Source: an uncultured Candidatus Saccharibacteria bacterium (GTDB lineage Bacteria; Patescibacteriota; Minisyncoccia; UBA6257; 1-14-0-10-44-23). Taken from it: DNA of 64,000 bases. The position numbers were made by a program, and so were the translations under genes. This document shows, in pieces, positions 4,996 to 33,411 of the stretch. The DNA is taken from contig CAZJVT010000001.1 of NCBI GenBank assembly GCA_964549935.1, positions 155,922-219,921 of the forward strand, written 5' to 3'. The notes beneath the pieces are model-generated. The model saw only the letters and a program-made list of their open reading frames with translations. It ran no database searches and was not told where the DNA came from. Numbering within the stretch: position 1 is the first letter of the stretch; the number at the start of each line of letters is the position of its first letter.

Positions 4996-5168
4996 GAGCT
5001 CACTTTGCTATGCTATTATTTTGGTAATAAGATCTTTCATTAAACGGCATACACTCGGGAGCGAATCTCGTTAGAAATGGGGATGTTTTAGTAAGGCGCT
5101 GCCTGTGATTATTATTTAGGAGTGCTATAGTATCGAAAATAGTATTAACATTTTAGATTTCTAACAGG

Positions 5169-5813
5169 ATGAAAAATCGCAAAGACTACATATCCGACAA
5201 GAACCTCTTTACTAAGGATTTGCCGGGGCTCTCGCAAAAGATGCTCGAGCAGCACTTTAAGCTGTATGAGGGATACGTGAAGAAGAGTAATGAGATTCAG
5301 ACGAAGGTTGATTCGGCGGACAAGAGCGAGGCGAATGGTGTGTACAGCTTTATTGGTGAACTGAAGCGCCAGGAGACCTTCGCGGTTAACGGCATGAAAC
5401 TACACGAGGTGTACTTCGGCCACTTACAGGGCGACGGCGACATATCAAAGGCACCGGAGTTAGCGGCAATGATTGAGAAAGATTTCGGTTCCGTGGACGC
5501 CTGGAAGGAGGAGATGCTGGCAACCGGTATGAGCGCCCGCGGGTGGTCGATTACCGCCTTTGATTATCGCGACAATCGGCTGCACGTGTATGGCAGCGAC
5601 GGACACAACGTCGGCGCAGTCTGGGGCGCGGTACCCGTCATTGTCTTAGATGTCTACGAACACGCCTACTTTATTGATTACGGCATCAGCCGCAAGGCGT
5701 ACATAGATACCTTTTTCCAGAATTTAGACTGGAAGTTTGCGGGAGAAATCGTCGCTGAATACGGACTTACTGCTCGATACGGCAAGGAGCGTGCGCAGAA
5801 TAGCGCGCAGTAA
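5169..5813 (+). CDS. sodA: Fe/Mn superoxide dismutase family protein, possibly divergent in the N-terminal metal-ligand region.
   Basis: C-terminal signature VLDVYEHAYFIDY matches the D-x-W-E-H-A-Y-Y SOD motif. GMKLHEVYFGHL and GWSITAF resemble other SOD blocks. The N-terminal HHxKHH block is reduced to QHFKLYEGYV. Confidence 0.55.
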   Translation: MKNRKDYISDKNLFTKDLPGLSQKMLEQHFKLYEGYVKKSNEIQTKVDSADKSEANGVYSFIGELKRQETFAVNGMKLHEVYFGHLQGDGDISKAPELAAMIEKDFGSVDAWKEEMLATGMSARGWSITAFDYRDNRLHVYGSDGHNVGAVWGAVPVIVLDVYEHAYFIDYGISRKAYIDTFFQNLDWKFAGEIVAEYGLTARYGKERAQNSAQ

Positions 5814-11256: not shown

Positions 11257-13254
11257 ATGGATAAAAAGCGCCAATCACGAATTTACGAACTATTGAAGAA
11301 AGGACTAGCTCTTATAGGGGCTGGAGAAGAATTGCCTGTTGATTGGGCTAAAGAATTTTTCCCACCTGAGAGGAGAGAGTATGAGCTTGTTTATCATGGC
11401 AAAGAGTCAGAAGAAAATATTCTTGCTGACACGATGTCGGTTCCATTGCAGCCAGTTAGCAACTTTGGGGAGGATAACGGAGAGTGGGATAACAAGTTGA
11501 TTTTTGGAGATAATCTTCAGGCTATGAAAAAGTTGGTGGAGATGAAAGAAAGAGGTGAGCTGGTTAATGCAGACGGAACTTCTGGGGTTCGTTTGATTTA
11601 TATCGATCCTCCTTTTGCGACTAAAAGAGATTTTCATGGCACTAGAGATCAAGAGGCGTATCAGGATAAGATTGTTGGTGCTGAATTTTTAGAATTTCTC
11701 AGAAAGAGATTAGTTTTTTTAAGGCAGCTCATTGCTGAAGGCGGCACAATTTATGTGCATCTCGATTCTAGAAAGGGTCATTATATCAAGACGATTATGG
11801 ATGAGATTTTTAGCGGTTTCGAGTTTGCTGAAATCGCATGGGTTTGCGGTTTAATGGGTTCAGGCAAATACTATCCGAAAGCTCATGAAAATATTTATTG
11901 CTACAAGTCACCAAGGGCACCATTTAACCCTCCTCCGAGAATCGGTCTTTCTCAAAGGATCACCAAGGCTTTGCAAAAAGACAAAAATGGATGGTTCTAT
12001 ACACGAGGCAAAGAGAGCAGCGGAGGATCAAGTTATCTTAAATCTTACATTTGCTTAGATTCGAAATTGAGCAAAGAACAAGCAATCGAATTTGCCAATG
12101 AATATAGGCCTCAACAAGCATGGAGTGTTTGGATGGGCAAAAGAGAACTCGCTTATGAATTCAATGATTATCCAGTTGGAACCTATGCATATACAGGGAC
12201 CGAGAGCGTAGGATATCCAACTCAAAAGCCAGAAGCTTTGTTGGCGAGGATTATAAATGCTTCTTCTAACAAAGGAGATATCGTGCTTGATGCCTTCGCT
12301 GGTTCGGGAACGACATGCGCCGTAGCGGAAAAGCTAGGACGGCGTTGGATTGGAATTGATTGCGGTAAGTTATCTATCTATACAATCCAAAAGCGCTTGC
12401 TGAACCTTCGTTCAGAAATTGGTAATACGGGCGATCTAATAAAACCAAAACATTTTACGCTCTATAATGCAGGATTATATGATTTTGATTCTTTACGGAA
12501 ACTGCCGTGGGAAAGTTGGAGATTTTTTGCTTTACAGCTTTTCGGCTGCAAAGACGAAACGCACAAGATTAAGGGGTTTCATCTAGATGGCAAGAAGCAA
12601 GGTTACAGCGTCTTAGTTTTCAATCATTTTCAGAATGGGGTTATTAGTAGGGAGACGATTGAAGAGCTGCATGCACACATCGGGAAACAAATCGGCAATA
12701 AATGCTTCATCATAGCTCCTCGAGGTGCCTTTTTGTTTCAAGAAGATTATTTAGAGCTAGACAGCGTGAGATATTATGCGCTTCGTATTCCTTACTCATT
12801 TATCAACGATCTTCATGCGCGACAATTCTCTGCCCTTACTCAGCCAAATGATGAGACTGCTGTTAATGAAACTGTTGAGGCAGTAGGGTTTGATTTTATC
12901 CAAGCGCCCGCCGTGGATTACCAGCTCCAGCAAGTGGGAGAATTTACTTATTTGAAAATTAAAAAATTTGAAAGTCGGGCAAGAGTCCGCGGGAGCGATC
13001 AGAGGGGTGGGCTTGAAACATTTTCGATGCTTATGATTGATTCAAATTATGATGGCAAGGTTTTTGATCTGGATCAGGTATATTTTGCCCATGACATTGA
13101 AGTTGCGAAATGGCGGATGAAGTTGCCAACTGGTCGGGGAGACATTATGGCGGTATTTCTGGACATTTATGGTAATGAAGCTAGAATTCTTTTGCGAAAG
13201 GGAATACCCTTGAGAGCGCCTCGGAAAGTAGCTGTTAGGAAAAAACATGCCTAG
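11257..13254 (+). CDS. mod: Type III restriction-modification system N6-adenine DNA methyltransferase (Mod subunit).
   Basis: [29 protein letters not shown] (motif IV DPPF) and [11 protein letters not shown] (motif I). At 665 aa its size fits Mod. Confidence 0.85.
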
Positions 13255-15775
13255 AACAAATTCAAATCAGGAGAGTTTCCAAAATGAAGACCTCGTACTC
13301 AAGGTCAGTCCTGCTGTTGATCGGAGACGATGGGATGAGGATCGGTATGAGGCTTTTTTGGATGAACTTTGTGGTTCTCGTGAATTTCAGAAAAAAGCGA
13401 TCCAGACTGCATTGAGATATTTGCTTGGACAAGAATATTCTGATCTTAAAGAATTGGCTCATTCTAATTTTGAGCAGAACGAAATGCTCCCTAAAAGATA
13501 TGGGTCATGGGCTAATATGGAGAGGAATTTGCAATTACCCAAACAGCTTTCTGCCTCGCTTGATTTAGCAACGGGCACAGGGAAAAGTTATGTGATGTAT
13601 GGAATTGCTGCGATCATGCTTGCTGAAGGTGCAGTAGATCGAGTCTTGATACTTTGTCCTTCTACTACAATCGAAACGGGGCTCGTGGAAAAATTTAAGA
13701 ATTTAGCAGCTCAGGCCGATCTAAGAAATCTTTTACCTGCCGATGTTAAATTGAAATCTCCAAAGATTATAGATGCCCGTGAAAGCATAACCAGTGGCAG
13801 TATTTGTATTGAGAATTATCATGCAATTTTAGAGCATGTGCGTTCTTCAATCAGAGAAAGCTTGGAGGGTAAAGGCGAAAGAACATTAATTCTAAATGAT
13901 GAAGCTCATCATGTAGCTAATGAGAGTACTGCTAAGGTTGGAAAGTGGAAAGAATTTTTAACTGATAAGAAATTTAATTTTAAGTATATTATCGGCGTAT
14001 CGGGCACATGCTATATCAGCAATGAATATTTTACGGATGTCATTTTCCGTTACTCATTGCGGCAAGCGATGGACGAAGGTTTTGTGAAAAAAGTGCATTA
14101 TGTGGCAGAGATGCCGACGACATCAAGTCCTGATGTTAAGTGGCAGTTGGTTTTGAACCGACATAATGAGATCGGTAAGAAATTAAAGGTACGCAAAATT
14201 CGTCCTTTGACGATTGTCGTTACTCAGACTATCGAGAGGTGCAAAGATGTTGCCGAGGAGCTAAAGGCATTTCTCATGGATCAGTCTGGGAAAACTCGTG
14301 AGCAGATTGATGAACAGGTATTGGTTGTATACAATAATGCGCCTGATGTTTTAAGGCTTTCTTCTGTAGACTCAAATAAAAGTAAAGTAGAGTGGATTCT
14401 GTCTGTCTCAATGTTGAATGAGGGGTGGGATGTAAAAAGAGTTTTCCAAATTGTTCCTCATGAGGAGAGAGCATTTAATAGTAAATTGCTTATAGCACAA
14501 GTGTTAGGTCGAGGTTTGCGCAAGCCAGAGGGCTGGCAGGGCGAGCAGCCGCAAATTACAGTTTTCAACCATGATGCATGGGCTTCGAGAATTAAGAAGT
14601 TGGTTGACGAGATAACAGAGTCAGAGAAAAGAATACCGACTTTCCCTATCAAGAATTCTTCTCTAAATTTTGAATTACTTAATATTGAGTACGATCCTAA
14701 GCCATATACTACAACTTATCCGATGGAGCGTCCTTATCGTATCTTTACCAAAGGATATATCGATTTAGCAACAGAAAAACCTGTCGAAGATGTCAGTATT
14801 GAATTTGTAGATGCTGGCTCAGGGCTAAGAACAAATTGGAAAACGAAGATTAAGCACAAGACTCATTCAGTCAAGGAGGTTGTAGAAGTGATGCATCAGC
14901 GCTTAGAGGATGCTGATCATTTGATAAATCCTAATTCCAAAGACAGTGAGCATTATACAAGTCAGTTTCCTAGATCTAAACTCGAAGAAATCATTAAGGA
15001 GTCTCTTAAGATGGCTGGCGTTAAAGATATCACAGACGGAATCAGGCAAAAGTTTCTTCAATCTTTAGGAACTTTACAGCGTAAGGAGGCTCAGGTTGTT
15101 CGTTATAAGTTCGAAGTGCAGAAGTACTTTCCTGTTGCTACTCAAGATCGATCTGACGAGAGCGTGAGTGCTGCTGATTTAAGAAGTTCGAATAAGACTT
15201 TATTCTTTACTGCCAAGACAGTCGAGACGCTTCCTGATGAGTCTAAGGAGTTCTATGGAGAAGCTACTGAGCCGGGCAGCGGATTTAAGTGTTACCCTAT
15301 TTCGAATTATCATGATTTTAGAAGTCCGTTAAATGCAGTAATCGCCGATCATGAGAATGAACGTCGTTTTATCAAGGAGTTGATTAATACCGAGAATACT
15401 CCGCATATAGTAAGCTGGATTAAGTCTACATCAATGGGGTTTTATGAAATTGATTATGCATGGAAAAAAGGCGAGCATCCGAAGAGAGGGAAGTTCAACC
15501 CAGACTTTTTTGTGTTGACTAAAAAGTTAGTCTTGGTAGCTGAAATCAAAGATGATTTAGAATTGAATGATCCGTCTGAAGAGAATCGCAAAAAAAGTGA
15601 ATATGCTCAACAGCATTTCGAGAGGATCAATGCCTTTCTTGCTAAGAAGAAAGCTTCTGTTAGGTACAAGTTTAATTTTCTGACCCCTTCTGATTTCGGC
15701 GGTTACTTTCAAAGTATCCGTGATGATAGTGTTCAGAACTTTCGTTCTAAACTAGATGTGAAATTAGCTGAATAG
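13247..15775 (+). CDS. res: Type III restriction endonuclease Res subunit (SF2 helicase-like).
   Basis: Walker [12 protein letters not shown] and DEAH box [10 protein letters not shown]. Its start overlaps the mod stop by 8 nt. 842 aa. Confidence 0.85.
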
Positions 15776-18921: not shown

Positions 18922-19704
18922 ATGAAAAATCTCTCTCAGGAGATACAAAGGCAGGCCTACGGCTATATTCGTGTCAGCACATCAGAGCAAAGCGAGAGTG
19001 GTTTGGGCTTAGATGTTCAGCAAAGTCAGATTGAGAAATACTGCAAAGACAAAGGCATTGAGTTAATAAAGATTTTTGAAGATCCGGGCTTTTCAGGTGC
19101 CGATGCTGATCGTCCGGGTCTTCAGAGTCTGATTATTCAGGCAAAGAGCAACGGTGTAAACCTGATACTGCTGGCTCACTCAAGCCGTCTTGCAAGAGAT
19201 TCAATGCTTGCAGAAATTATCTATCGTGATTTGAGAAAAAACGGCATTACCCTTGTCTCGGTTGCACAGCCAAGCTATTACGAAGAAGACGGAGACTTTC
19301 AGAGAAAGCTCGTCAGGACGATTCTAAGTGCTTTTGACGAATACGAGAAATCACTGATTAGTTGGAGACTTAAAAACGGTAGAGCAAAAAGAGTTGAGCT
19401 AGGAGGTTGGCATGGAGGCTGGGTTTACGGTTATCGGCACGGCAAAAAAGGCAAGCTCATAATCAACCAGAAAGAGGCCGACACAGTGAAAAAAATGTTC
19501 TATCTCCGTAAAAGCAAACGAATGAGTCATACGGGGATTGCTAGGGTGCTAAACAGTGAGGGCATTCCAACTAAAAAGAAAGATGCAAAGTGGCACAGTG
19601 CCACGGTTAAGAAGATGTTGAATAATCCGATTTACAAAGGGCTGCTTAATTATCGAGGTAAGACATATCAAGGTCATCATGAAAAAATCATTAAAGACGA
19701 ATGA
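18922..19704 (+). CDS. Serine recombinase with a resolvase catalytic domain plus a partial recombinase domain, and no zinc ribbon or coiled coil.
   Basis: YGYIRVSTSEQSESGLGLDVQQSQI holds the catalytic Ser region. GGWHGGWVYGYR..PIYKGLL is recombinase-domain-like. Confidence 0.8.
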   Translation: MKNLSQEIQRQAYGYIRVSTSEQSESGLGLDVQQSQIEKYCKDKGIELIKIFEDPGFSGADADRPGLQSLIIQAKSNGVNLILLAHSSRLARDSMLAEIIYRDLRKNGITLVSVAQPSYYEEDGDFQRKLVRTILSAFDEYEKSLISWRLKNGRAKRVELGGWHGGWVYGYRHGKKGKLIINQKEADTVKKMFYLRKSKRMSHTGIARVLNSEGIPTKKKDAKWHSATVKKMLNNPIYKGLLNYRGKTYQGHHEKIIKDE

Positions 19705-21385
19705 ACGAAGTCAACAAAAACGAGCCGCAATCTATTGCCGTGTTTCTAGCGATGAGCAGGTTAGAGGATACAGTTTGTCTACTCAGCAAGATCAGATTAC
19801 TGAGGTCATTGAAAAAGACAGTCTAAGCTTAGACAGCAAAAATGTTTTCGTCGACGATGGGTATACTGGCACCACCGACAACAGGCCTGCTTTGCAGAAG
19901 ATGATTGAGCAAGCCAAGAAAAAACAGATTGATGTCATATATGTTTGGAAGATTGACCGGCTCTACAGAAATACGAAGCTTATCCTTGGCTTAGTCGACG
20001 AACTACTTAAGTACGATGTCAGCGTCAAGTCGATTTTAGAGCCACATTGTGATAACTCAGACCCGAGAAGCCGTTATGTATTTACGATGCTTGCAGCTGG
20101 AGCAGAGATGGAACACGCGACCATTAAGGAGAGGACTCAGGGAGGCAAGGTCAGGGCCATGAAAGACGGCAAATGGGCTGGCATTGCGCCTTATGGCTAT
20201 GATGTTGACGCAGAGACTAAAAAGCTCATTATCAATGAGCATGAGGCACGCTGGGTAAGGAAGTTTTTCCAGTGGTTTGTTAACGAGAGAATGACATTAC
20301 ACAGATTGCAGGTTCGCATTAATGCTTCCAGCATACCGTCGAAGCTAGACAACCTTGCTGAAAAGAAAACTAAGCACGGTCGTCGTTATCAGCAGAAAAC
20401 TAGGAATGACAAGTTTTTCTGGGCAAAGAGAACGATAGACCGAATACTGACCAGAGAGATGTATGCAGGCACTCATGTTTTCAGGCAATACGATTCTCGG
20501 AGCAAGGCCATGACGGAATCCAATATGCGACCTCAGTCAGAGTGGATTCCAGTTTCGGTGCCAGCGATTGTAAGTCGAGAGATTTTTGATGCGGCTCAAA
20601 AACTGCTTAAGCGCAATAAGCGAGATTCACCAAGACGAACTTCTAGGGTTTATCTTTTCGGTAAGAAACTTGAGTGTGGTTTTTGCCATCGTCGTCTTCA
20701 GTCTGATTACGCTAGGCCTAAAATACGGAAAGACGGGACAAGAAAAGAGGATTACAACTACTACATAGGATCTTGGCATTGTGGTGGATACACGAATAAA
20801 AGATGTGAACATTGCGTAAGATACAATGAGAACAATTTGCGAGAGCCGATTTGGAATAGCATAGTCAAGCTACTTTCAAGTCCAGAGCTTGTCATAAATC
20901 TGATTTTGGAAGGTAGGTCTCAAAAAGAGGGAACATCAAATTTAGGGGAGCTTATTGTCAGCTACGAAAAAAGAGAAGTTGGATTCAAGATGCGCGAAGA
21001 GAGACTGTTGAACCTTCATCTTAGCGGTGAGCTTGATTTAGAGATTTACAGGAAAAAGAAAGCAGAGATAAAGGAACAGCGGCAAGAATTTGATAACGAG
21101 AAAAGGCGGATAGAGAATCTAGCAATTAACGAAGCAGAGAAGCGCAATAGAGTAGTTTCCGCAAAAGCGATCTATCGTAAACTTAGAGAACGATTAGCAA
21201 CAGCGACTTATGAACAGCAGGCGAATATTATTAAGGTTCTAGTTGAAAATATCGTTCTGAATGATCAGGAGGCAGAGATTGAGGTTAATCTTCCATTGAA
21301 AGAAGTTGTTCCACAATTCGTTGCTCGAATAGAAGCTAGTGATAAAAGTCCCGAAGTTTTGTGTGACAACCAACGAATGGATTGA
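19679..21385 (+). CDS. Large serine recombinase (integrase type) with a recombinase domain, zinc ribbon and C-terminal coiled coil.
   Basis: AAIYCRVSSDEQVRGYSLSTQQDQI; zinc ribbon CGFCHRRLQ..WHCGGYTNKRCEHC; coiled coil EIYRKKKAEIKEQRQEFDNEKRRIENL. Its start overlaps the previous recombinase by 26 nt, and its 3' end abuts the right junction. Confidence 0.85.
   Translation: MKKSLKTNERSQQKRAAIYCRVSSDEQVRGYSLSTQQDQITEVIEKDSLSLDSKNVFVDDGYTGTTDNRPALQKMIEQAKKKQIDVIYVWKIDRLYRNTKLILGLVDELLKYDVSVKSILEPHCDNSDPRSRYVFTMLAAGAEMEHATIKERTQGGKVRAMKDGKWAGIAPYGYDVDAETKKLIINEHEARWVRKFFQWFVNERMTLHRLQVRINASSIPSKLDNLAEKKTKHGRRYQQKTRNDKFFWAKRTIDRILTREMYAGTHVFRQYDSRSKAMTESNMRPQSEWIPVSVPAIVSREIFDAAQKLLKRNKRDSPRRTSRVYLFGKKLECGFCHRRLQSDYARPKIRKDGTRKEDYNYYIGSWHCGGYTNKRCEHCVRYNENNLREPIWNSIVKLLSSPELVINLILEGRSQKEGTSNLGELIVSYEKREVGFKMREERLLNLHLSGELDLEIYRKKKAEIKEQRQEFDNEKRRIENLAINEAEKRNRVVSAKAIYRKLRERLATATYEQQANIIKVLVENIVLNDQEAEIEVNLPLKEVVPQFVARIEASDKSPEVLCDNQRMD
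21371..21380. repeat. Right 10-bp direct repeat (caacgaatgg).
   Basis: Identical to 11143-11152. Confidence 0.6.
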
Positions 21386-27566: not shown

Positions 27567-27995
27567 ATGGCAGGTAAACCAGTAAAAGCAGTTGTAAAGC
27601 TGCAAATCGAGGCAGGTAAGGCTAATCCGGCTCCGCCGATTGGTACGGCCCTTGGCCCTCAGGGTATCAACATCATGAACTTCTGTAAGGAGTTTAACGC
27701 CGCGACTGCACAGATGGCGGGTGATGTTATCCCGGCTGTTATCACGATCTACGAAGACCGCAGTTTTAGTTTCATCATGAAGACGCCGCCGGCCTCCTCG
27801 CTGCTTAAGAAGTACGCGAAGATTGAGAAGGGTGCCGCTAACCCGCTGACCACCAAGGTTGGCAAGGTTACCAAGGCTGATGTCCGCAAGATCGCTGAGC
27901 AGAAACTCGTCGACCTCAACACGACGGATATCGAGAAAGCGATGCGCACTGTTGCCGGAACCGCCCGCAACATGGGTATCGAAATCAAAGACTAA
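27567..27995 (+). CDS. rplK: 50S ribosomal protein L11.
   Basis: [34 protein letters not shown]. Confidence 0.9.
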
Positions 27996-28002
27996 GAATC
28001 AA

Positions 28003-28040
28003 AACACAAACGGCGCCTCGGGCGCCGTTTGTGTTTTGTG
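28003..28040 (+). terminator. Rho-independent terminator after rplK.
   Basis: acaaacggcgcc-tcg-ggcgccgtttgt then gttttgtg. Confidence 0.65.
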
Positions 28041-28066
28041 ATTACATTGCTAGAATAGTACGTACG

Positions 28067-28890: not shown

Positions 28891-30354
28891 ATGACAACGT
28901 ATATACCAGTAATAGGGCTTGAGATACACGCTGAATTGCGCACCAAGAGCAAGATGTTTTGTGCTTGTCTGAATGACCCCGACGAGACGCGGCCGAATGT
29001 AAATATCTGTCCGGTGTGTATGGGTCACCCGGGGACGCTGCCCGTTGCCAACAAAGCGGCCATCGAGCACATGATTAAAATCGGTATGGCGGTTGGTGGT
29101 GAGATTCCGGCGGTTTCGAAGTTTGATCGCAAAAACTATTTTTATCCGGATATCCCGAAGGGATACCAAATTTCGCAATTCGATATTCCATTTGTGTTTG
29201 GCGGGAATTTAAAGGGAGTGCGAATTACACGCGTGCACTTGGAAGAGGATACGGCCAGCTCGACGCACCAAAAGGACTCGAGCGGCAAAGAGGTTTCGCT
29301 CATCGACTTTAACCGCGCCGGTACCGCGCTGATGGAGCTCGTTACTGATCCGTGTATCCGCGAGGTTAAACAGATTGGCGAGTTTGGTCGCGAGCTGCAA
29401 CTCATGCTCCGTTACCTTGGCGCTTCAGATGCGGATATGGAAAAGGGACAGATGCGCGTGGAGGTCAACTTGTCGCTTGGTACCATCGTCGACGGGGAGT
29501 TAAAGTTTGGCACCAAGGTGGAGGTCAAAAACATTGCTTCGTTTAATATGGCCGAGCGCGCCGCGGAGTACGAGATCAAGCGCCAGCGGGAGATTTTAGA
29601 AAACGGTGGCACGATTGACCAGGAGACGCGCGGTTGGGATGACCCGCACCAAAAGACAGTTAGCCAGCGTAAGAAGGAGAGCAGCCACGACTACCGCTAC
29701 TTCCCGGAGCCGGATATCCCGCCGGTGGATTTGTCGAAGTTTGATTTAAGGCGACTGAAGGCTGAGCTGCCGGAACTGCCCGCGCAAAAGCGCGTGCGCC
29801 TGGCCGATGAGTACGGGCTGACGACAGAGCAGATTGAGGTTTTGGTGTTCGACCGTGATTTGGCGGGATTTTTTGAAAACGTCGTTTCCGAGCTCAAGGA
29901 GGAATTGCGAGAGCAGTTTAATCCGAAAAAGCATGTTCCGCTTGCCGTTAATTATCTAACCAGCGACCTTAAGGGACTGATGGTTTCCGCCGGCATTAGC
30001 GACCCGCTCAAGACCAAAGTTACGGGTGAAAACCTGGCGGATTTGGTCATTTTAGTCGCCGGAGACAAGATTACCAGCCGTGTGGCTAAGGACGTTCTTA
30101 AGACTATGTTTGTAACAGGTGGCGATCCAAACGTCATCATTAAGGAGCAGGGGCTCCTGCAGATCTCGGATGAGGGAGCTTTGCGGATTGTCTGCGAAGA
30201 GCTAATTAAGGCTAACCCCGGGCCCGCTGCGGACTACAAGGGAGGTAAGGAGGCGGCGCTGATGTTCTTCGTTGGGCGAGCGATGGGCCAGCTCAAGGGG
30301 AAAGGCAACCCCGCAGTCCTGCAGAAGTTATTTAAGGAGCTGCTCGTTAGATAG
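28891..30354 (+). CDS. gatB: Aspartyl/glutamyl-tRNA amidotransferase subunit B.
   Basis: IGLEIHAEL..SKMFCAC..PVCMGHPGTLP and the C-terminal GatB/YqeY domain. Confidence 0.9.
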   Translation: MTTYIPVIGLEIHAELRTKSKMFCACLNDPDETRPNVNICPVCMGHPGTLPVANKAAIEHMIKIGMAVGGEIPAVSKFDRKNYFYPDIPKGYQISQFDIPFVFGGNLKGVRITRVHLEEDTASSTHQKDSSGKEVSLIDFNRAGTALMELVTDPCIREVKQIGEFGRELQLMLRYLGASDADMEKGQMRVEVNLSLGTIVDGELKFGTKVEVKNIASFNMAERAAEYEIKRQREILENGGTIDQETRGWDDPHQKTVSQRKKESSHDYRYFPEPDIPPVDLSKFDLRRLKAELPELPAQKRVRLADEYGLTTEQIEVLVFDRDLAGFFENVVSELKEELREQFNPKKHVPLAVNYLTSDLKGLMVSAGISDPLKTKVTGENLADLVILVAGDKITSRVAKDVLKTMFVTGGDPNVIIKEQGLLQISDEGALRIVCEELIKANPGPAADYKGGKEAALMFFVGRAMGQLKGKGNPAVLQKLFKELLVR

Positions 30355-32368: not shown

Positions 32369-32612
32369 TTTCTCGGGCTTTTTCTGGCCGGATTTTTTCG
32401 CTATTGAAAAAAAGCCCGCGAAATAGTAAGCTTTACGGACAATTTAATATTCTGGAGTAGTTAGTGGGTTTTGGCCACCAGGCCAAAACGGGCAACTTCC
32501 ATAAAACTACTAGAAGGAATTGGTTGCCCTGGAAGATCGCCGAGCGCGAGGCGTTCTACCAGCGGATAATAGATTTATTAGAAATATCGTGGTTTCTCAA
32601 AACTAAATACAT

Positions 32613-32892
32613 TCCGGAGTAGTTCAGTGGTAGAACGCCTCGCTGTAAAGGTATTGCAGCTTTCAGCCGAAAGGTTGATTGAAAAATCTTGGGATAACGG
32701 TGGAGTCCTACTTTTGTAGGAGAATACCGTGGGAACTGGAATATATCATATATGATATATTCTGGAGCGCCGTAGAGACTAGATACCAGGAGACCTAAAA
32801 CGCAAGTCATGGTCGTGATATAGTCCACCCCTTTCAGTAATGAGAGGACACGTGTAACGAGGATGTCGTAGGTTCGATCCCTACCTCCGGAG
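32613..32892 (+). tRNA. tRNA-Asn(GUU) gene interrupted by a group I intron between anticodon positions 35 and 36. Exons are 32613-32646 and 32855-32892; CCA is not encoded.
   Basis: The spliced sequence folds as a canonical tRNA: acceptor tccggag/ctccgga, D-arm gttc-agtggta-gaac, anticodon stem cctcg/cgagg, loop cuGUUaa, variable atgtc, T-arm gtagg-ttcgatc-cctac, discriminator G. These match the E. coli tRNA-Asn D-arm, anticodon loop, variable loop and discriminator G exactly. Confidence 0.7.
32647..32854 (+). ncRNA. Group I (IC3-like) self-splicing intron in the tRNA anticodon loop; 208 nt with no ORF.
   Basis: Internal guide sequence gcagc (32656-60) pairs with the 5' exon end gctgU, with a U.G wobble at the splice site. 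Core GCCGTAGAGACTAGATACC...CCTAAAACGCAAGTCATGG...TAGTCC matches the conserved P7/P3 region of bacterial tRNA group I introns. The intron ends in G. Confidence 0.65.
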
Positions 32893-32928
32893 CTGACATT
32901 TTTAGGAGACTTGGAGTATACTTTTTTT

Positions 32929-33411
32929 ATGAAGGTTTACTGTATTGGTGGAGGATCCGGCACTGGCAAAACAACCGTTTGTGAAGAGTTGAAGAGAAGG
33001 GGCTACCAGGTTGTGGATGCCGATGAAGAGTTGGCATTTTTTGCTGATCCAAAGACTCGTTTACCTGTAAACGAGAAGACCACGCATTGGCTGTGGGATA
33101 AAGAAGAATTTCTTGCAGCAATTCAGAAGGGTCAGAACGAACCTGTCTTTGTTTGCGGGGGAGCAACGAATCAGGACGAGTTCAAAGATCATTTTGAAAA
33201 GATGTTCACGTTGCACGTAGACGATGCCGTGCTTAAGCATCGCCTTTTAACGAGAACTAACAATGACTTTGGTAAGGATCCAAAAGACTTAGCTCAGCAG
33301 CTTGAGTGGAATAAGAATGCAATTACATATGCCAAGCAGCGGGGCACGACGCTTATCGATGCAACAAGACCGCTCAAGGAGGTGGTAGACGAGATATTGC
33401 GTTTGCTTTAA
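32929..33411 (+). CDS. P-loop NTPase, putative nucleotide or nucleoside kinase.
   Basis: Walker A CIGGGSGTGKTTV; small kinase-like size; RBS aggaga upstream. Confidence 0.5.
   Translation: MKVYCIGGGSGTGKTTVCEELKRRGYQVVDADEELAFFADPKTRLPVNEKTTHWLWDKEEFLAAIQKGQNEPVFVCGGATNQDEFKDHFEKMFTLHVDDAVLKHRLLTRTNNDFGKDPKDLAQQLEWNKNAITYAKQRGTTLIDATRPLKEVVDEILRLL

Follow-up and report, generated by a model that had tools for sequence, protein, structure and literature searches.

Here we report that positions 32613-32892 of the plus strand of the window (the whole stretch of DNA that was analysed, 64,000 nucleotides long) are a real tRNA-Asn gene, which is interrupted in its anticodon loop by a group I intron. 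That a tRNA-Asn(GUU) gene is split here by a 208-nt group I intron after U35 had been proposed in a first-pass annotation, and is now supported by tRNA prediction with ARAGORN, an Rfam covariance model, RNA folding, covariation among related introns, and an intron-less orthologue. On the strength of the comparative analysis, we put the probability at about 90% that the intron is an active endonuclease-free ribozyme, which restores the anticodon loop CUGUUAA in a functional tRNA-Asn(GUU) gene.

When introns were allowed, ARAGORN identified tRNA-Asn(gtt) at 32613-32893 with the intron descriptor i(35,208), placing the intron after sequence position 34, which is U35 of the tRNA; without the intron option, it reported zero tRNAs in the whole 64-kb window. 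Exon 1 (32613-32646, plus strand, 34 nt, ending in GCTGT) provides tRNA positions 1-35, namely the 5' strand of the acceptor stem, the D-arm, the 5' strand of the anticodon stem, and residues C32, U33, G34, and U35. The intron (32647-32854, plus strand, 208 nt) starts with AAAGG and ends with CACGTG, its omega-G being located at 32854, in agreement with the terminal G assigned previously. Exon 2 (32855-32892, plus strand, 38 nt) starts with TAACGAGG and comprises U36, A37, and A38, the 3' strand of the anticodon stem, the variable loop AUGUC, the T-arm, the 3' strand of the acceptor stem, and the discriminator G73, with which it ends; CCA is not encoded after it. The insertion point lies between U35 and U36 in the anticodon loop of tRNA-Asn(GUU), and the joined exons are recognized by ARAGORN as a clean canonical 72-nt cloverleaf with the anticodon GUU. 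Comparison with an E. coli reference sequence confirmed as annotated tRNA-Asn showed identity in the D-stem, the anticodon loop CUGUUAA, the variable loop AUGUC, and G73, as had been claimed, while the description of the entire D-arm as identical was slightly overstated, since the D-loop of the window tRNA is one base shorter than that of E. coli. A distant-mode search of E. coli genomes with the spliced window tRNA returned no match.

The group I assignment was examined with the Rfam covariance model, a check suggested in the first-pass annotation. In a local scan of positions 32500-33000 (501 nt), the RF00028 (Intron_gpI) model aligned over its full length, with model positions 1-253 matching 32637-32847 at 40.7 bits (E-value 4.9e-9), short of the gathering score of 50. 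The intron was not reported in the whole-window Rfam scan at the gathering threshold and was also missed by the whole-window E-value scan, being reported only by the local 501-nt scan. None of the Intron_gpI seed sequences is bacterial, and the survey of Williams 2020 (bioRxiv 10.1101/2020.01.27.920355) used 18-20 bits in combination with tRNA context. The sub-threshold score is treated here as a limit of model sensitivity, not as evidence against group I membership. No Pfam match was obtained for two open reading frames that overlap the intron or its leader (32556-32828, minus strand, and 32464-32622, plus strand), and both are regarded as spurious; the intron itself contains no ORF and has no room for one.

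The MFE fold of positions 32640-32860 alone contains P1, P2, P3, P4, P5, P6/P6a, P8, and P9 (-72.2 kcal/mol, z = -4.55). The window coordinates of all helices, which lie on the plus strand, were checked base by base, and covariation was counted on a MAFFT alignment of nine introns of the compact type defined below. P1 (32642-32660) is formed by the exon bases GCUGU together with intron A1 (32642-32647) and by the guide strand UGCAGC (32655-32660), with U35.G at the 5' splice site, so the previously predicted pairing of the internal guide GCAGC (32656-32660) with the exon GCUGU and its wobble at the splice site stands. The P1 pair adjoining the splice site covaries (GC in six sequences, AU in two, and GU in one), and the splice-site UG is found in 9/9. 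The P2 hairpin (32663-32678) has 6 bp, all six of them with compensatory changes, and a GAAA tetraloop L2 at 32669-32672. The 5' strand of P3 (32687-32692) pairs with CCAGGA at 32786-32791, a 3' strand supported by the covariation count; compensatory changes were detected in four of the six pairs, and the MFE fold and RNAalifold agree on this helix. P4 (32697-32702 / 32725-32730, flanked by J4/5 GAG and J5/4 GAA) and P5 (32706-32710 / 32717-32721) were each recovered by the covariance model, the MFE fold, and RNAalifold. P6 (GG/CC) and a long AU-rich P6a hairpin (32736-32748 / 32753-32765) occupy 32731-32771, as supported by covariation, the inverted repeat I3, the MFE fold, and RNAalifold.

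In the catalytic core, the 5' strand of P7, GAGACUA with a bulged A (32775-32781), pairs with UAGUCC (32821-32826), a 3' strand located by the covariation count, and 6/6 of these pairs are invariant in the nine sequences. P7 crosses P3 to form the usual pseudoknot, which we take, from the established structure of group I introns, to be the guanosine-binding site. P8 (GACC/GGUC, 32792-32814) has covariation in three of its four pairs and contains an internal CCUAAA...CAUGG, presumably akin to the 11-nt tetraloop receptor of the Azoarcus intron structure. P9.0 (AC 32827-32828 / GU 32852-32853), spanning 32827-32853 and lying directly 5' of the terminal G 32854, was proposed by RNAalifold with one covarying pair (CG in seven sequences, UA in one, and GC in one), and it encloses P9 (32830-32836 / 32841-32847), also predicted by RNAalifold, with a GUAA tetraloop and five covarying pairs. 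The motifs GTAGAGACTAGA, TAGTCC, and CCTAAAACGCAAGTCATGG, quoted earlier as core signatures, are all present in the intron.

Across the nine introns, 94.5% of the helix cells of the proposed structure are paired, compared with 38-42% when the partners are slid, and 27 of the 51 pairs are changed on both sides; the observed values were reached in 0/500 shuffles. Covariation is seen in P2, P3, P5, P6a, P8, and P9, while P4 and P7 are invariant. RNAalifold, which is independent of the proposed structure, gave the same helices as well as P9.0 with its covarying pair. The window sequence was compared with its seven closest relatives among the matches listed, and of the 93 columns in which these do not vary, it matches 90. 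The three exceptions are position 32703 in J4/5, which is G in the window and A in all seven close relatives, position 32789, where the pair is kept as U.G, and position 32849; P7, J8/7, and omega-G are unchanged, and every helix is intact. A profile built from these seven relatives scores the window intron at 123.7 bits.

By Pfam, the window encodes GyrB, Tmk, GatB, an SPFH protein, a P-loop kinase, an ECF-type sigma factor, a PAS histidine kinase, UvrA, and UvrB. As the window had no match in the phage collection and these are ordinary chromosomal genes, it is a piece of bacterial chromosome and not a phage. All named near matches of GatB and GyrB belong to Candidatus Harrisonbacteria, Parcubacteria, Paceibacterota, or a 'Patescibacteria group', and these source names, rather than a tree, assign the host to the Patescibacteria. 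The GatB and GyrB searches also led to a close relative, GCA_964641225.1, whose GyrB is 97% and GatB 83% identical to those of the window. Its contig (L259) keeps the order GyrB-SecE-NusG-L11-Tmk-GatB, with a continuous tRNA-Asn(gtt) gene some 1.5 kb downstream of GatB. The predicted 72-nt ligated exons are identical to L259 9981-10052 at 72/72 positions, and the window exon 2 is 100% identical to L259 10015-10053. This verbatim uninterrupted gene fixes the splice junction of the window at 35/36. The insertion is base-precise, with no exon base duplicated or lost, and the occurrence of the same exons with and without the intron in two close relatives represents a presence/absence polymorphism.

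Based on these features, the following course of splicing is proposed. After transcription, the intron would fold into P1-P9, and the guide GCAGC would pair with the last bases of exon 1, GCUGU, thereby positioning the U35.G wobble at the active site. The first attack, on the 5' splice site, would come from a free guanosine bound in P7; P9.0 would then bring the terminal G (32854) into the same guanosine site, and the freed 3'-OH of U35 would attack the 3' splice site, joining U35 to U36. The product would be a 72-nt tRNA, to which CCA would be added later. Catalytic activity of the window intron is expected by homology with the members of its class that self-splice in vitro. We infer that the interrupted gene is the only tRNA-Asn of the cell, the part of the genome examined being 64 kb.

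The best-surviving alternative, which we nevertheless regard as improbable, is that the intron is catalytically dead and the gene a pseudogene copy, with an uninterrupted tRNA-Asn elsewhere in the genome supplying the cell. Such a copy could account for the Rfam score under the gathering threshold and the A-to-G change in J4/5 at 32703, a second tRNA-Asn could be encoded outside the 64 kb examined, an inverted repeat upstream of the gene could trap exon 1, and an intron-less allele is indeed present in the relative. Against it, 90 of the 93 family-invariant positions are kept, all helices are intact with P7, J8/7, and omega-G unchanged, and the exons are 100% identical to the intact gene of the relative, which would be unexpected for a decaying copy. 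Moreover, neither of the two genomes used for published splicing assays has a second copy besides the interrupted gene (PMC13011429).

Even less probable is an assembly artefact, in which the intron of another organism was stitched into the tRNA during metagenome assembly. The GatB of the relative was found in run SRR14271332 (L260), where the window sequence is also present at 100% identity, and the start of a Logan contig from this run coincides exactly with the first base of exon 2; no independent intron-spanning contig was retrieved. This break is explained by the co-occurring relative that shares exon 2 and has its GatB in the same run, the de Bruijn graph probably having merged the intron-plus and intron-less alleles at this point. 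In addition, the guide of the intron is complementary to the exon end of its own tRNA, and the insertion is exact to the base. Splice sites two bases upstream, at 33/34, which would yield tRNA-Thr(UGU) (GCU/GUAAAGG...GACACG/UGUAACG), are formally possible, with the intron again following a U and ending in G, and this call is made by ARAGORN and tFind for many homologues (at least 28 of the listed loci are called Thr(tgt)) and in Table 1 of PMC13011429, but it is effectively refuted by the intron-less orthologue with CTGTTAA, the anticodon GTT, and a 72/72 match to the 35/36 junction, by the P1 G.U wobble falling on U35 while U33 pairs with A, by the likeness of G73 and the tRNA body to E. coli tRNA-Asn, and by the published sequencing of spliced products, which gave 35/36 (PMC13011429).

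To place the intron among its relatives, two sequence patterns were used. The Asn-specific pattern, consisting of the Asn exon end and P1/P2, was found in 11 viral contigs and gave at least 120 matches in species-representative genomes. Among the matches listed, at least 119 loci have a clean Asn(GUU) gene with an intron of 183-334 nt at 35/36; 11 of them are viral contigs, and the rest are species genomes of many phyla. By record titles, the matches listed include Patescibacteria, Omnitrophota, Nitrospirota, Planctomycetia, Acidobacteriota, and Bacteroidota/Ignavibacteriota, together with delta- and gammaproteobacterial groups, WOR-3, and others. The core pattern GTAGAGACTAGA..ACCTAA..ATAGTCC, which covers P7-P3'-P8, was found in at least 120 IMG/VR contigs, mostly in tRNA-Leu(UAA) introns, with one tRNA-Asn(GUU) intron at 35/36 (L074) among the matches listed. 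The listed Asn loci fall into two core types. In the compact type, which includes the window, GTAGAGACTAGA is followed after 25-41 nt by GATATAGTCC, and in the majority type the P7 strands are separated by 55-89 nt. The closest compact members among the matches listed come from Harrisonbacteria, Saccharibacteria, Parcubacteria, Peregrinibacteria, and one Brevinematales MAG.

In protein-spliced (bulge-helix-bulge) tRNA introns of archaea and eukaryotes, the anticodon loop is also interrupted, mostly at 37/38, by short introns that have no ribozyme core and depend on an endonuclease and a ligase for their removal. The window intron differs from them by its full group I core and its location at 35/36. 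Classical IC3 introns, such as those of cyanobacterial and plastid tRNA-Leu(UAA) at 34/35 and of Azoarcus tRNA-Ile(CAU), are like the window intron in their length of about 200 nt and their P1-P9 organization without peripheral domains, and IC3 tRNA introns share with it the GNRA loops on P2 and P9 and the P7-P3'-P8-P7' core. In the window intron, P7 and P3' are just 4 nt apart, P8 is the only helix between P3' and P7', and P7.1/P7.2 are lacking. The GNRA loops on P2 and P9 and the CCUAA...AUGG-like segment of P8 are, by likeness to the Azoarcus intron, IC3-like. The window intron differs from classical IC3 introns in its host tRNA and insertion site, and its P1-P2-J2/3 segment is specific to the Asn family. 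A tRNA-Leu(UAA) intron profile matches positions 125-181 of the window intron at 20 bits, and a profile of the majority Asn type matches it at P1-P2 only, with 17 bits. A chimeric origin, with a 5' part from the Asn family and a 3' core from IC3, was considered but is not supported by the evidence, as the apparent mosaic can be explained if an insertion resembling P7.1 disrupts the alignment of the majority type. Against the IC3 affinity proposed in the first-pass annotation, published subgroup covariance models assigned 25 of 28 introns at 35/36 to IA and no Patescibacteria tRNA intron to IC (PMC13011429).

The first-pass annotation regarded an Asn host with insertion at 35/36 as unusual, especially in this lineage, and listed only Leu, fMet, Ile, and Arg as known bacterial hosts. 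Both statements are outdated. The tFind survey of Williams 2020 (bioRxiv 10.1101/2020.01.27.920355), which paired a low-threshold Intron_gpI match with an ARAGORN call that allowed introns, increased the number of known bacterial tRNA/intron classes from 4 to 21 cases, and the window intron was found by the same approach. One of these cases is, according to Nakagawa et al. (mSystems 2026; PMC13011429), the class 'Asn.4Ug', which resembles the window in the interruption of tRNA-Asn after the fourth base of the anticodon loop, with U-1 and omega-G. Nakagawa et al. reported that Asn/Asp introns at 35/36 are enriched in Patescibacteria and missed by standard annotation: in a set of 4,934 complete genomes, Patescibacteria account for 19 of the 28 introns of this kind, which mostly lack endonuclease genes (PMC13011429). 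Two of the Patescibacteria introns at 35/36, one in tRNA-Asn and one in tRNA-Asp, showed precise self-splicing in vitro with an omega-G-to-C control, and sequencing of the spliced products confirmed the 35/36 junction (PMC13011429). Since Asn introns at 35/36 with splicing in vitro are published for Patescibacteria, to which the window itself belongs by its protein matches, the claim of novelty fails, and the lineage of the window is one in which a tRNA-Asn intron at 35/36 is typical.

The window intron and the introns of PMC13011429 share the host tRNA-Asn with its anticodon, the 35/36 site, U-1, omega-G, the phylum, the lack of a homing endonuclease gene, and a compact architecture, and both are missed by default annotation tools. 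The compact type is also listed in Table S3 of that study, including examples in Asp and Tyr hosts, and has there the same core strings as the window, GGGATAACGGTG, GTAGAGACTAGATACC, and GATATAGTCCAC. Overall identity of the Table S3 examples to the window is about 57-65%; GCA_030583765.1 (Paceibacteria, Asn), for instance, has identical core motifs at 61% overall identity. The window intron differs from them in its long AU-rich P6a and in the G instead of A in J4/5, and its genome is not among the 95 complete genomes, nor the intron itself among the entries, in those tables of PMC13011429 that were accessible.

Parts of exon 1 recur in the region upstream of the gene. At 32449-32468, the 5' end of the tRNA is nearly repeated together with three flanking bases; a perfect 8-bp hairpin (32469-32488) follows, and 66 nt upstream of the gene, at 32546-32561, tRNA positions 16-31 are present as a perfect inverted copy of 16 nt. 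Should this inverted copy be part of the transcript, it would pair with exon 1 and could compete with folding of the tRNA and of P1. In the intron-less relative GCA_964641225.1, part of exon 1 is repeated in direct orientation at the equivalent position. Among the listed Asn-intron loci with enough upstream sequence, 12 of 115 (about 10%) carry either exon-1 copies interrupted by GC-rich hairpins or a recurring hairpin alone; a further locus, the 13th (L171), has a genuine tandem duplication of the gene. The hairpin-interrupted partial copies lie 90-350 nt upstream, in loci from several phyla, and in at least four loci the copies end exactly at the 35/36 insertion site. The recurring hairpin TCCGCC-N3-GGCGGA is found in distant phyla among the listed Asn-intron loci. 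An Rfam search of the upstream leaders of the window and of L193 found nothing meaningful. We consider it rather doubtful that these copies are more than debris. If they are, they might be the footprint of endonuclease-free acquisition, in which one-sided or illegitimate recombination would have left the exon 1 of the recipient behind without a homing endonuclease, or they might form a conserved leader that would modulate folding or splicing of the precursor; either reading, if true, would be an undescribed feature of the spread or control of this intron class.

The window intron is, by these comparisons, one more case of a published class and is probably functional. Because default tRNA finders and Rfam at the gathering threshold miss the gene, the genome would be scored as lacking tRNA-Asn and its completeness would be underestimated, a point of annotation that was also made by Nakagawa et al. 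2026 (PMC13011429). Finally, two co-occurring close relatives with identical exons, one with and one without the intron, are a clear-cut natural case in which an intron that carries no endonuclease gene was recently gained or lost.

The tRNA-Asn gene that occupies positions 32613-32892 of the window is present without its intron at positions 9981-10052 of L259, from contig CAZXKC010000001.1 of the close relative GCA_964641225.1. The GatB gene of this intron-less relative was found in SRR14271332, the same sequencing run that contains the window sequence, and the first base of L254, a Logan contig from that run, coincides with the start of exon 2 (position 32855), as expected at the point of the assembly graph where the alleles with and without the intron come together. 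On the plus strand of the window, 2.3 kb 5' of the intron-split tRNA-Asn gene, lies the gene for GatB (28891-30354), one of the subunits of the Asp-tRNA(Asn)/Glu-tRNA(Gln) amidotransferase; in the intron-less relative GatB is likewise encoded close to tRNA-Asn.

Partial copies of tRNA-Asn exon 1, split by GC-rich hairpins, are located 90-350 nt 5' of the real gene. In the window they lie at 32449-32488 and 32546-32561, as compared with 32610-32643, and the leader contains one direct near-copy of the tRNA-Asn 5' end and an inverted copy that reproduces 16 nt (tRNA positions 16-31) without mismatch. An exon-1 copy also precedes the intron-less tRNA-Asn gene of the relative (L259, 9897-9950), and such copies and hairpins were identified 5' of the respective tRNA-Asn genes in nine intron-split loci (L146, L157, L178, L188, L193, L205, L207, L236, and L245). 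Among the matches listed, the copy stops precisely at the 35/36 insertion site of the intron in at least four loci, and one hairpin, TCCGCC-N3-GGCGGA, is shared by Planctomycetia, Binatia, Omnitrophota, and the Patescibacteria relative. A scan of the leaders from the window and L193 against Rfam gave no match. A Candidatus Vecturithrix metagenome-assembled genome (L171, JAXGYF010000001.1, approximately 5001-5406) contains a tandem pair of complete tRNA-Asn(GUU) genes at a distance of 354 nt from each other, one split by a 250-nt and the other by a 251-nt intron.

Elsewhere in the window, a palindromic hairpin (27992-28046) located where the thymidylate kinase gene begins weakly matched a microRNA family on both strands, its score of 30.9 bits being far below the gathering score of 87; the likeliest reading is a fortuitous match or a hairpin resembling a terminator. 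A LOOT RNA (Rfam RF03000; 15849-15972, plus strand; 81.2 bits, gathering score 46.4) was identified directly 3' of the genes for a Type III restriction helicase (13247-15775) and a DNA methylase (11257-13254). This stretch has a reduced G+C content of about 41-43%, and its end lies close to the gene of a large serine recombinase (19679-21385); it may represent a genomic island.

The relative has a gene for a large serine recombinase with Resolvase, Recombinase, and Zn_ribbon_recom domains (L259, 10041-11522, minus strand), which terminates within the 3' end of tRNA-Asn; an HTH_17 gene comes next, and the arrangement suggests that an element has integrated at this tRNA gene. Among the matches listed, the 3' end of the tRNA is repeated in direct orientation downstream in several other loci.
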